Below are positions 15,229 to 24,210 of a DNA stretch of 64,000 nucleotides, in pieces. The first letter of the stretch is position 1, and every line of letters starts with the position of its first letter. The stretch comes from Deltaproteobacteria bacterium RIFCSPHIGHO2_02_FULL_43_33 (GTDB taxonomy: Bacteria; Desulfobacterota; GWC2-55-46; UBA9637), in assembly GCA_001798165.1 (NCBI GenBank), contig MGRL01000007.1, forward strand, positions 455-64,454, in the 5' to 3' direction. Position numbers and translations under genes: made by a program. The notes under the pieces are model-generated. The model saw only the letters and a list, made by a program, of their open reading frames with translations. It was not told where the DNA came from and did no database searches.

Positions 15229-15768
15229 ATGAAAATGCCTTCGCAAAAAGGTTTTTCCATGATTGAGATGTTGCTTGTAATAGCGATTATTATGATAATC
15301 GCCGCTATTGCTGCGACCGGATCCGGTTTTTATCAAAGCCGCCGATTAATGGCGGCATCCCAGCAGCTTTACGGTGATATACAGAAGACGAGGATTGACG
15401 CCATGACTAAAAGCATTGCAGCGAACAGCCGGGGCTGGGGGATACAGTTTGATTCAAGCAGCCAATACACAATATTTGAATTCAACGATGGGAACGGCAA
15501 TTTTAATTATGATTCGGGAGAAGCGGCGAATGCAAGGCAAGTAACTTTGCAGACGGGTATAGCCGTGACCGTAAAAGGCAACCCTGCCGGTGATGACAAC
15601 ATAGTGATATTCGATAAGCAGGGGCTGTCGAAGGCTACTACCTGGGCAGGAGGCAGCAGAACATTTATCGTGCAACTTTCAGGGGTTTCCGACGGCAGGT
15701 GTCTGGTGTTGGATGATGTCAGAATCAGGGAAGGGATATGGTATGCTTCAAAGTGTACAAAACAGTAG
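15229..15768 (+). CDS. Type IV pilus minor pilin, FimT/FimU (GspH-like) family, copy 1
   Basis: Prepilin leader MKMPSQKG followed by FSMIEMLLVIAIIMIIAAIA, with Gly at -1, Phe at +1 and Glu at +5. About 40% identical to the next gene. Confidence 0.8.
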   Translation: MKMPSQKGFSMIEMLLVIAIIMIIAAIAATGSGFYQSRRLMAASQQLYGDIQKTRIDAMTKSIAANSRGWGIQFDSSSQYTIFEFNDGNGNFNYDSGEAANARQVTLQTGIAVTVKGNPAGDDNIVIFDKQGLSKATTWAGGSRTFIVQLSGVSDGRCLVLDDVRIREGIWYASKCTKQ

Positions 15769-15900
15769 AAAAGAAAGTAGACAACATGTAGTAGATATTA
15801 GACAGGGGAGAAATACAGTAGATAGTAGGAGAGTAGAAAGTAGGAAGGTGGAAAGTGTTTCCCTGTCTACCTCCTGCCGTCTACTATCTACTATTTTTTA
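15764..15900. repeat. Palindromic heptamer element A: (AGTAGAC-like)n ... GGAAAGTGTTTCCC ... (GTCTACT-like)n, followed by TTTTTT. Terminator-like.
   Basis: The left arm is gtagtagatattagacagg...gtagatagtaggagagtagaaagtagg. The right arm is cctgtctacctcctgccgtctactatctactatttttta. Confidence 0.7.
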
Positions 15901-16010
15901 CATGACAATTATCCCGCACTTTTTTCATAGTTCGCAAGATGTAATGCCCTTCAGCAAAAACCCTTTTTAAAAATATCTTTATTTATCAAGCAGTTAATTT
16001 TATAAAAACA

Positions 16011-16026
16011 TGGCATAGAAATTGCT
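16011..16026 (+). promoter_or_regulatory. Sigma54 (RpoN) -24/-12 promoter TGGCAT-N5-TTGCT, 16 bp upstream of the second fimT-like pilin gene
   Basis: tGGCATagaaaTTGCT matches the consensus TGGCAC-N5-TTGCW. A sigma54 activator gene sits 1.6 kb upstream. Confidence 0.6.
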
Positions 16027-22400: not shown

Positions 22401-24087
22401 GGTAAATACCTATCATATAGACTATGGCGACAGCACCTATTATAACTATGTGACCAGTAATAGTTATAAACAACGTTCGTCTATAGCCTTTGTCGGCGCC
22501 AATGACGGTGTGCTCCATGCCTTCAGGGTGGGGTATTTAAAGGACACAGGACTTGACGCGGGTGTAAATGCCCTGTTTAAGAACTTCTACAGCTCAGCCG
22601 ATACAGAAAATAACCGACTCGGCGAAGAGGTGTGGGGTTATATACCATTTAATGCGTTTCCGTATCTCAGATATCTGGCAAGCACAGGGTATTGCCATAT
22701 CTATTTTAACGACCTTTCAGTAAGGCTTGTGGATGCGAGTATTGGCGGCAGTTCTGCCCTGCCCACAGACACGAGGGCTCAGGCTGACTGGAAAACCATC
22801 CTCATCGGCGGCATGAGGTTCGGCGGCGGATGTGCAGGTGGAACACCGGACAAACCCGCTACAGTGACGAATGTAGGTTATTCAGCCTATTATGCAATTG
22901 ACATCACAAACCCTGAAGACCCTGTGCCACTGTGGGAGTTCTCTGACGACGATATGGGTTATGCATCTACATTTCCCTCTGTTATAAGGACAGGGGAGAC
23001 CAATAAGAATGGCTACTGGTATGTTATATTCGGTTCTGGTTCAAAGCAGATGCCAAAGGCGAATACAGACATCTACCGGGGCACTACAAGCCCGCTCGCG
23101 GACCCTGGTTATATCTATATCCTTAATCTTAAAACAGGCGCACTTGAGAAAAAGATAGCCCTTGACCATAATGCCATTGTGGGAGATATCCTCGCGATAG
23201 ACAAAGAAAAGGATTATCATGCGGAGAAGGTTTATTTTGGCACAACCTATAAAGATAATACCGATGGCATATGGAAAGGAAAACTGGTAAACATAGCGAT
23301 ACCGAACCAGAATCTATCTGATTCATGGACGCCTGCAATTACCTACCATTTTTCAGGCAATTACCCCTTTACTGCGTCTCCTGATGCAGCCAGGGATACA
23401 GACGGCAATGTATGGGTATTTGCAGGTTCAGGCAAATACTATAGTGACGTGGATGACAGCGATGCCTCAGCTCAGATATTCTTGGGCATGAAAGACAGCT
23501 ACAGTGGTAAGACTACAACCAACATGGATGACAGGACGAATAGCGACACTACAGGCACGGTAACAGGGACAGCGCTGGTATGCGGTTATGATTCTGATAC
23601 AACTTCAGCTCAATATGGAACCTTTCACTTGCTGACCTATGTTACCTCTATTAGCGGGGCAGCCACAGTAACAACACCTACTGTTGGCTGGTATCTATTA
23701 TTTTCTGGCGGAGAACGCATTATTACGCGGCCTCTCGCGATAGGCGGACTTGTGGACTTTTTGACATATAAACCAAATGCCTCTGACCCCTGTTCATACG
23801 GTGGCAGCTCATATCTCTATGCAGTGGGCTATACCACAGGCGTTGCCCCAGCAAATGTGGCAATTATGGCGCCTGATGCAGTAACAAGCGGTGGAACAGT
23901 TAAGAAGGGCATCCTCCTCGGTCCGGGCGCTCCTCCCACAGGAGAGGCAATCATCATCCCGCCTCCAAAGGAAGGACAGGAGACATTGAAAAAGAAGATA
24001 CAGATAGCCACAGGCGTTATTGTGGAGGCTGAAAATCAGCCGGTAACATCCGTTATATCCAAAGTGGTTCACTGGCTGAAGAAGTAA
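19405..24087 (+). CDS. pilY1: PilY1/PilC-like type IV pilus tip adhesin. It has a signal peptide, a vWA-like region, tandem He_PIG/Ig-like domains and a C-terminal PilY1 beta-propeller-like domain.
   Basis: Signal peptide [23 protein letters not shown]. An Ig-like repeat reads [67 protein letters not shown]. A PilY1-like vWA C-terminus reads [29 protein letters not shown]. The C-terminal region has D-rich Ca-site-like loops (DTDGNVW, DDSD). The gene sits directly after the minor pilin genes. Confidence 0.75.
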   Translation: [1560 protein letters not shown]

Positions 24088-24088
24088 A

Positions 24089-24210
24089 AGTAGACGGTAG
24101 AAGATAGACTTTTTAAAAGTAGACAGTAGATAGTAGATAGGGAAAAACAAAAGATTTTCTTTCTACCCTCTACCTTCTACCGTCTACTTTCTACTCTCCT
24201 ACTGTCTACC
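24089..24210. repeat. Palindromic heptamer element D after pilY1
   Basis: Runs from agtagacggtagaagatagact...agtagacagtagatagtagatagg through ctttctaccctctaccttctaccgtctactttctactctcctactgtctacc. Confidence 0.7.

Follow-up and report, generated by a model that had tools for sequence, protein, structure and literature searches.

Imperfect palindromes of the repetitive extragenic palindrome/bacterial interspersed mosaic element (REP/BIME) and Correia types are known to function as terminators, as RNase III sites or as barriers that affect mRNA stability. Palindromic repeats are also found within genes, as in the case of the Rickettsia palindromic elements (RPEs), which lie in frame within protein-coding genes, where they contribute a peptide at a tolerated site (PMC10969869). 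Heptameric repeats are over-represented in some bacterial genomes, such as STRR in Calothrix/Nostoc, GGGAATC in Xanthomonas and TAACTGA by the start codons in Beggiatoaceae (PMC4692102, PMC4679880). Prepilin leaders, in turn, are reported to comprise 6-26 residues, those of type IVa having less than 10 (rarely 18) and those of type IVb 15-30; the leader is cytoplasmic and only Gly-1 is critical for its cleavage (PMC4471445). The present analysis concerns a minor-pilin operon in a stretch of 64,000 nucleotides (hereafter referred to as the window) from Deltaproteobacteria bacterium RIFCSPHIGHO2_02_FULL_43_33 (GCA_001798165.1, contig MGRL01000007.1, positions 455 to 64,454). Four related palindromic elements (A to D) of the GTAGAC/GTCTAC type accompany the genes of this operon, and two of them lie within the predicted leader-coding regions of pilV and pilW. 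PilV and PilW leaders of 50 and 68 residues, respectively, are on balance probably translated from conserved ATG codons, as judged by the comparison of the window with related loci (designated below by L numbers).

The predicted prepilins resemble those with class III signal peptides in having Gly-1, Phe+1, Glu+5 and a hydrophobic helix, preceded by a hydrophilic, basic leader predicted to be cytoplasmic, and differ from them in that the 50- and 68-residue leaders are repeat-encoded and absent from the closest orthologues. Leaders of this length would be unprecedented but mechanistically tolerable. As with RPEs and intragenic transposable elements of the miniature inverted-repeat type (MITEs), the elements are multicopy palindromes of ~100-240 bp that lie in frame in coding genes, in this case in the leaders of two different genes. 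However, RPEs occur genome-wide in many unrelated genes, whereas the GTAGAC family is confined to one operon in the 64 kb available; its arms consist of tandem heptamers, and terminal inverted repeats, target-site duplications or a partner transposase were not identified, nor was any transposase found in the minor-pilin operon. With the heptameric simple sequence repeats (STRR, GGGAATC and TAACTGA) the arrays of the window have in common the strongly over-represented and mostly intergenic tandem units of 7 nucleotides, the 7-nucleotide indels and the occasional inverted repeats able to form stem-loops and, with the Beggiatoaceae TAACTGA repeats, the concentration next to start codons. In the genomes rich in those repeats one or a few units dominate, whereas nearly each locus in the window has a unit of its own, often arranged as a two-armed hairpin, and the TAACTGA sets lie almost all upstream of the start codon, while several of the arrays described here are predicted to be translated. 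The REP/BIME and Correia elements are likewise imperfect palindromes at the junctions of polycistronic operons, but they are extragenic by definition and have a fixed consensus, whereas two of the present copies are inside predicted coding sequence. The case thus differs from RPEs and from the known heptameric repeats in being operon-local, heptamer-built and located in cleavable leaders.

The minor-pilin operon (15229..24087, forward strand) was delimited by domain hits and by synteny in L012, L014 and L088. It comprises, all on the forward strand, fimT-like 1 (15229-15768), fimT-like 2 (16042-16602), pilV (16571-17185), pilW (17236-18507), pilX (18521-19120) and pilY1 (19405-24087), with PilW and PilY1 domains detected in the corresponding open reading frames (ORFs). 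The N_methyl motif of Pfam occupies residues 3-29 in both fimT-like proteins, whereas the PilV ORF has it at residues 57-80 and the PilW ORF at 67-89 (E-values 8.6e-8 and 7.3e-6, respectively). The cleavage sites read THKG/FSLVEMM in PilV and YYSG/FSLVELL in PilW (the slash marks the position of cleavage), and the hallmarks of class III prepilins, namely Gly-1, a hydrophobic N-terminal helix and Glu+5, are present. The ratios of nonsynonymous to synonymous substitution rates (dN/dS) for the mature parts of pilV and pilW range from 0.23 to 0.51, similar to those of the fimT genes, which indicates purifying selection.

All four palindromic elements listed in the earlier note are present as it had described them. 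Allowing up to one mismatch, GTAGACAGTAG has 18 matches in the window, of which 18 lie inside elements A-D, against an expectation of 0.42 and a maximum of 2 in 100 shuffles. In each element, AGTAGAC-like units form the left arm and GTCTACC-like units the right arm, with a loop between them. The 22-mer GGAAAGTGTTTCCCTGTCTACC constitutes the exact core common to A (15850) and B (16642); the 23-mer core proposed earlier is exact in B and carries one mismatch in A. Element A (15764..15900, forward strand) follows fimT-like 1 and has its hairpin core at ~15817-15893 and a T-run at 15894-15899. It shows 82-84% identity to element B, of which it is a paralogue produced together with the fimT duplication. 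Element B (16597..16712, forward strand) begins at the stop codon of fimT-like 2, lies wholly within the pilV leader-coding region and is homologous to an element in the pilV leader of L016. Element C (17189..17427, forward strand) is a nested palindrome with an outer left arm at 17189-17225, an inner hairpin at 17273-17360 and an outer right arm at 17370-17427, and has homologues in the pilW leader of L014 and the pilX leader of L016; the Shine-Dalgarno motif and the ATG of pilW (17236) lie between its outer arms. Element D (24089..24212, forward strand), which is non-coding and related to C in both orientations, follows immediately on the pilY1 stop codon. The claim that each junction of the operon carries such an element was overstated, as the pilW-pilX junction is devoid of a GTAGAC element and the palindrome between pilX and pilY1 is unrelated. 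The latter (19239-19349) comprises CCCCTCTTTATCAAAGAGGGG in two direct copies with inverted arms, and its minus-strand translation gives peptides of the PLFDKEG type, often seen as spurious ORFs. In one scaffold (L090; ANAN16 scaffold_104809), window position 17363 is joined to 24155, i.e. the right arm of C to the right arm of D, via a common stretch of 36 nucleotides, with the removal of pilW, pilX and pilY1 (6.8 kb); this is either a recombination variant between the repeats or a chimeric assembly.

The distribution of stop codons over the three frames follows the coding status of the copies in part. Element B (0/2/5 stops per frame) and the portion of C that follows the pilW ATG (0/2/4) are open in the coding frame, whereas D (2/3/4) and the portion of C preceding the ATG (1/1/1) are closed in all the frames. 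With perfect GGTAGAC repetition, three units would suffice to put a stop into every frame; one frame is free in C because, according to the stop coordinates, its TAG triplets are spaced 7, 8 and 7 nucleotides apart.

The evidence for a long leader is clearest for pilW. The pilW ATG at 17236, noted previously to lie inside element C with a ribosome-binding site, holds up as the only canonical in-frame start, from which 68 codons extend to Gly-1 (17236..17439, forward strand). Between this ATG and the G/F site of pilW there is no further in-frame ATG, GTG or TTG and no Shine-Dalgarno-like motif ahead of rare codons; the only rare in-frame candidates are CTG 17332 and ATC 17377, both located in the pyrimidine-rich arms. 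The closest PilW homologues (65-78% identity) have ordinary leaders, such as MTLLKKNDG/FSLVE and MLLKKNSG/, and the pilW of L012 is without element C. In L014, on the other hand, C has a shorter homologue, which shares the GGGGAAAAAATATGAGAAAC start context and gives a 39-residue in-frame leader with no other start. The context of the pilW ATG in the window and in L014, GGGAAAAA(A)TATGAGAAAC, is located in the left arm.

For pilV, only ATG 16544 and ATG 16571 are available in frame with the G/FSLVE site if ATG, GTG and TTG are considered, as had been stated earlier, and the predicted leader from ATG 16571, which lies in the 3' end of fimT-like 2, comprises 50 codons (16571..16720, forward strand). 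Conservation of ATG 16571 and the Shine-Dalgarno-like GGGAAGGGG extends to L012, L014, L016 and L023 as well as to relatives further removed. In the relatives without element B, the pilV leader measured from the conserved ATG is 9-15 residues long. It is a 9-residue leader in relatives labelled Nitrospirota and Thermodesulfovibrionales, where the ATG likewise overlaps the 3' end of fimT, and a 15-residue leader with no other start in L012 (MQRTQVAQYSRQETG/FSLIEMM). Hairpins follow the conserved ATG in frame in the window (50 residues), L016 (43) and L023 (36).

The third gene, pilX, has a pre-sequence of 33 codons (18521..18619, forward strand), in which a perfect (AGAAGTC)4.3 array (18539-18568) lies between ATG 18521, with its strong AAGGAGG Shine-Dalgarno motif, and the QKG/IALIV site. 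Both AAGGAGG and the ATG are conserved in L088 and L016. The two relatives provide an empty and a filled site: the pilX of L088 (MDSLKVYNNNKG/) has a 12-residue leader without an element, whereas that of L016 has a 55-residue leader including a 43-residue in-frame insertion of the C type, with at most AAT on both sides. The L016 insertion aligns to element C of the window almost without gaps at ~88% identity, as judged from the alignment by eye, and both encode the same peptide STFKKSTIYHLPSTN. A long repeat-encoded leader is the best supported interpretation for pilW, and also for pilX, whose case had escaped the earlier note.

The comparison of orthologous loci, proposed in the earlier note as a check, showed that the starts are kept upstream of the elements and that the repeats in the leaders are all in frame. 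Repeat-containing leaders were found nine times among the pilV, pilW and pilX genes of six genomes; each of them is open and in frame, and as these leaders differ in length, the frame has been kept through several indels. A survey of 170 prepilin-like genes in the related loci revealed an in-frame start in every gene whose upstream region is intact, and in 148 of the 170 the start lies no more than 12 residues from Gly-1. In just 6 genes is the nearest start more than 20 residues upstream of Gly-1; one long hairpin insert is present in each of L014 pilW, L023 pilV and L043 pilW, and several small hairpins in a fourth of the six, L047 pilW. The elements thus seem, from these alignments, to be a discrete duplicative unit that occurs in the leaders of different genes and genomes, always in the same frame. 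The leader peptides encoded by them include TVDSR, VDSR and STIYHLPSTNSVYPLPSTYYYSG. A search with the leader peptide among 5.8 billion proteins retrieved only one other protein, itself a C/D junction, and this single match argues against a widespread RPE-like peptide family. Translational bypassing of the T4 gene 60 type need not be invoked, as the frames are open throughout.

The following scheme would account for these observations. Elements A-D would be copies of one duplicative palindromic repeat, with arms made of degenerate tandem heptamers, belonging to the window-wide population of period-7 arrays and hairpins, which gather at gene starts and junctions. B and C would have come to lie in the leader-coding parts of pilV and pilW because the operon is tightly packed, with almost no intergenic space, and only in-frame, stop-free versions would survive there. 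Translation from ATGs 16571 and 17236 would read through the hairpins to give prepilins that are cleaved at G/FSLVE, the leader remaining cytoplasmic until its removal by the prepilin peptidase. The enzyme expected to remove the leaders is the product of a Peptidase_A24 (PilD-like) gene at 10752..11348 on the forward strand, placed here by offset from the Pfam annotation of the identical contig L001 (3517-4113). Translation and cleavage of the leaders may be accompanied by an additional action of the hairpins on the RNA, such as segmental mRNA stability or modulation of translation, and the elements presumably arise and change by slipped-strand or template-switch events.

Several observations weigh against this scheme. 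Leaders of 50-68 residues are far beyond the reported range of 6-26, and the nine repeat-bearing leaders are not phylogenetically independent. One frame is open (0/4/6) in the non-coding copy A as well, and since A is paralogous to B, openness may be partly inherited rather than selected. The assembly represented by L005/L009 is one heptamer shorter in the pilX array, so that ATG 18521 is out of frame and no canonical start is left; this variant may reflect a phase-variation switch or an error of assembly. In pilV, a CTG (16655) is present at the apex of the B hairpin, 8-18 nucleotides after a AAGGGGGAAAG motif, and the L016 homologue has an in-frame TTG at the equivalent site, 13 codons before the Gly. 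A start at the apex CTG/TTG would give a leader of 14-22 residues and represents a weak alternative for pilV. The case for a long leader is better in pilW and pilX than it is in pilV.

The earlier note had left three options, namely long leaders, non-canonical starts and RNA hairpins that happen to be open in frame. The first is now best supported for pilW, the second survives as a weak alternative for pilV, and the third, that of RNA hairpins, is true but compatible with the first. The most serious competitor, though an unlikely one, is that the elements are untranslated RNA structures and that pilV and pilW start at a non-canonical codon downstream of or in the hairpin, e.g. CTG 16655, in which case the leaders would be of normal length and the open frame incidental. 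In addition to the pilV apex codons of the window and L016 and the open frame of A, the proximal GTG or ATG starts of pilV in L014 and L088 are consistent with this explanation. It is difficult to extend to pilW, in which CTG 17332 and ATC 17377 are the only candidates between 17236 and the G/F site, with neither an NTG start other than that CTG nor a Shine-Dalgarno motif; the pilW of L014, the pilW of L043 and the pilV of L023 have a far upstream start only. A further point against it is that the nine repeat-containing leaders are all open and in frame, while D and the pre-ATG part of C are closed in every frame.

RNA folding showed every element to be a long imperfect hairpin with an energy well below that of shuffled controls: -37.6 kcal/mol for A (z -3.3), -44.6 for B (z -5.5), -42.9 for the inner hairpin of C (z -6.8), -71 for the whole nested C (z -5.6) and -47 for D (z -6.1). 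Among the B-type hairpins 3 of 30 pairs are compensatory, as derived from only 3 sequences, and at one pair, which reads U-A, C-G and A-U in turn, the variable heptamer position changes in step with its partner; the C-type hairpins show no compensatory pairs among 4 sequences. An RNA-level role of the predicted hairpins, as a stability barrier, a processing site or an initiation gate, is plausible, the last being considered because the Shine-Dalgarno motif and ATG of pilW sit between the outer arms of C. The proposal that element A acts as a terminator was not supported. Although TTTTTT comes directly after its hairpin, the stem is A/U-rich at the base, and L012 retains the T-run but has lost the left arm. 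None of A-D was called in a terminator and promoter scan of the window, in which terminator-like sites were no commoner than in shuffles. The sigma-54 promoter-like motif reported after element A, TGGCAT-N5-TTGCT (16011..16026, forward strand), upstream of fimT-like 2, proved to be real; it has no second match in the window, and two relatives, L012 and L014, conserve it.

It is also conceivable, with a rather low probability, that the elements are primarily cis-regulators of the polycistronic mRNA, serving as RNase III or other processing sites, exonuclease barriers, coupling or phase-variation devices or, in the case of A, as a terminator, with translation merely a tolerated side effect. The conservation of the hairpin between copies with its compensatory pairs, the location of the elements at four gene boundaries, the T-run at A, the enrichment of arrays at translation start regions and the variation of the perfect pilX heptamer array by one unit between assemblies are in agreement with such a function. 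However, the closest relative, L012, lacks B, C and the left arm of A and yet keeps the operon; no element matched Rfam at the gathering threshold, the sole hit in the window being a tRNA (43631-43701); A remained uncalled in the terminator scan; and the compensatory changes come from very few sequences, with none for the C type. The remaining possibility, that pilV and pilW have lost their function or been silenced through the insertions, so that the genes are decaying or off and their open frames meaningless, might draw on the strong hairpins (-45 to -71 kcal/mol) that enclose or follow the start sites, the scaffold in which C is joined to D without pilW, pilX and pilY1, and the 7-nucleotide variant that puts pilX out of frame, but it is very improbable in view of the intact mature regions with dN/dS like that of the neighbouring fimT, the same architecture with full-length downstream ORFs in the diverged L014, L016, L023 and L043, and the identical sequence in many samples and assemblies. 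Pseudogenes are similarly disfavoured by the dN/dS values and the intact orthologues.

The pilin elements are one local family of a heptamer phenomenon that extends over the whole window and had escaped the earlier note. Period 7 alone is enriched, with 169 self-match positions as compared to 8 for period 10 and none for periods 3-6, 8, 9, 11 and 12. The window contains 28 period-7 arrays with many different units, often as two-armed hairpins, and Tandem Repeats Finder lists such arrays in all four elements. Eleven of the 28 are within 60 nucleotides of a gene start, whereas 3.7 +/- 1.8 would be so placed at random. Variation by a 7-nucleotide step was observed in the pilX array, which has one AGAAGTC unit fewer in L005/L009, while no such length variation was found in elements A-D among the near-identical assemblies. 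A more far-reaching proposal may be considered, although only as a doubtful one: the heptamer hairpins, far from being passive, would be generated at or targeted to initiation regions and work as cis RNA switches housed in dispensable leader or signal-peptide codons, whether by gating initiation through their structure, by RNase III cleavage or by 7-nucleotide slippage that turns expression on and off. The lineage would in this way adjust the stoichiometry or phase of its minor pilins and of other envelope proteins (PilP, PilQ), and PilD would routinely process leaders 3-10 times longer than any described.

Other arrays of the window are found in a variety of positions. The ArgJ start reads MKIANRKSQIANF... 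from an in-frame (AAATCGC)n array (8749-8787). PilP (28806-28971) and PilQ (29441-29558) contain in-frame arrays or hairpins just after the start, in the n-region of a lipoprotein-type signal peptide; in PilQ the n-region with the hairpin insert reads MKKII[...]LSAFCILLTVFYGC. A sigma-54 response regulator carries two perfect in-frame 33-nucleotide (AGCCTTC)4.7 arrays (13234-13266 and 14209-14241) encoding the peptide QPSAFSLQP, one in the receiver domain and the other in the linker before the helix-turn-helix DNA-binding domain; in L012 the linker of the sigma-54 activator has a PPIPPFPKGG-type repeat in place of the second array. This sigma-54 activator gene (13042-14400) is situated just upstream of the minor-pilin operon, as are a histidine kinase gene and the Peptidase_A24 gene. 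An (AACCTCC)n array (1886-1928), whose unit is anti-Shine-Dalgarno-like, and its reverse complement (GGAGGTT)n (3699-3734), with a Shine-Dalgarno-like unit, flank a whole 1.8-kb gene (1932-3719), and three separate heptamer arrays (32578-33225) occur in one 416-residue ORF (32312-33562) with a chorismate synthase-like N-terminus.

In some relatives the pilin region also contains a gene for a four-helix-bundle protein similar to 23S_rRNA_IVP/bAvd. This gene is located between pilW and pilX in L016 (4464-4844) and L014 (4540-5004), flanked in both by GTAGAC arrays, and in L029 and protein P0097 it runs in frame into the pilW leader. A link to a diversity-generating retroelement (DGR) or to Avd was considered and rejected for the window, in whose pilin region neither such a gene nor a reverse transcriptase was seen.

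The window is identical to contig MGPG01000080.1 of GCA_001797355.1 and to scaffolds from several other samples, the identical sequence being labelled Deltaproteobacteria bacterium GWA2_43_19 or RIFCSPLOWO2_12_FULL_43_16, and positions 15100-25200 are identical in independent assemblies from several samples. An assembly artefact is ruled out by the many independent assemblies with identical sequence. The operon is a mosaic with respect to its relatives: fimT-like 1 is nearer to L014 (79% amino acid identity) than to L012 (68%), whereas pilV and pilW are far nearer to L012 (88% and 79%) than to L014 (62% and 60%), and these different closest relatives point to recombination within the operon. 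In the NCBI annotation of an identical contig (L003, 9504-9950), PilV is cut to 148 residues with a start inside the hydrophobic helix, and the 423-residue PilW is listed as a hypothetical protein. Wherever there are arrays in this genome, the starts of genes are not reliable.

Translation of the leaders would make them, by a wide margin, the longest known for class III signal peptides, and the prepilin peptidase as well as membrane insertion would tolerate repeat-encoded, partly hydrophobic pre-sequences of 50-68 residues, which would be useful in defining the limits of the substrate and in annotation. More generally, cleavable N-terminal leaders and the n-regions of signal peptides appear, here outside the Rickettsia lineage, as places where expanding palindromic repeats can land safely. 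The genomes of these uncultured groundwater bacteria are full of heptamer hairpins at gene starts, and gene callers will systematically misplace the starts in them.

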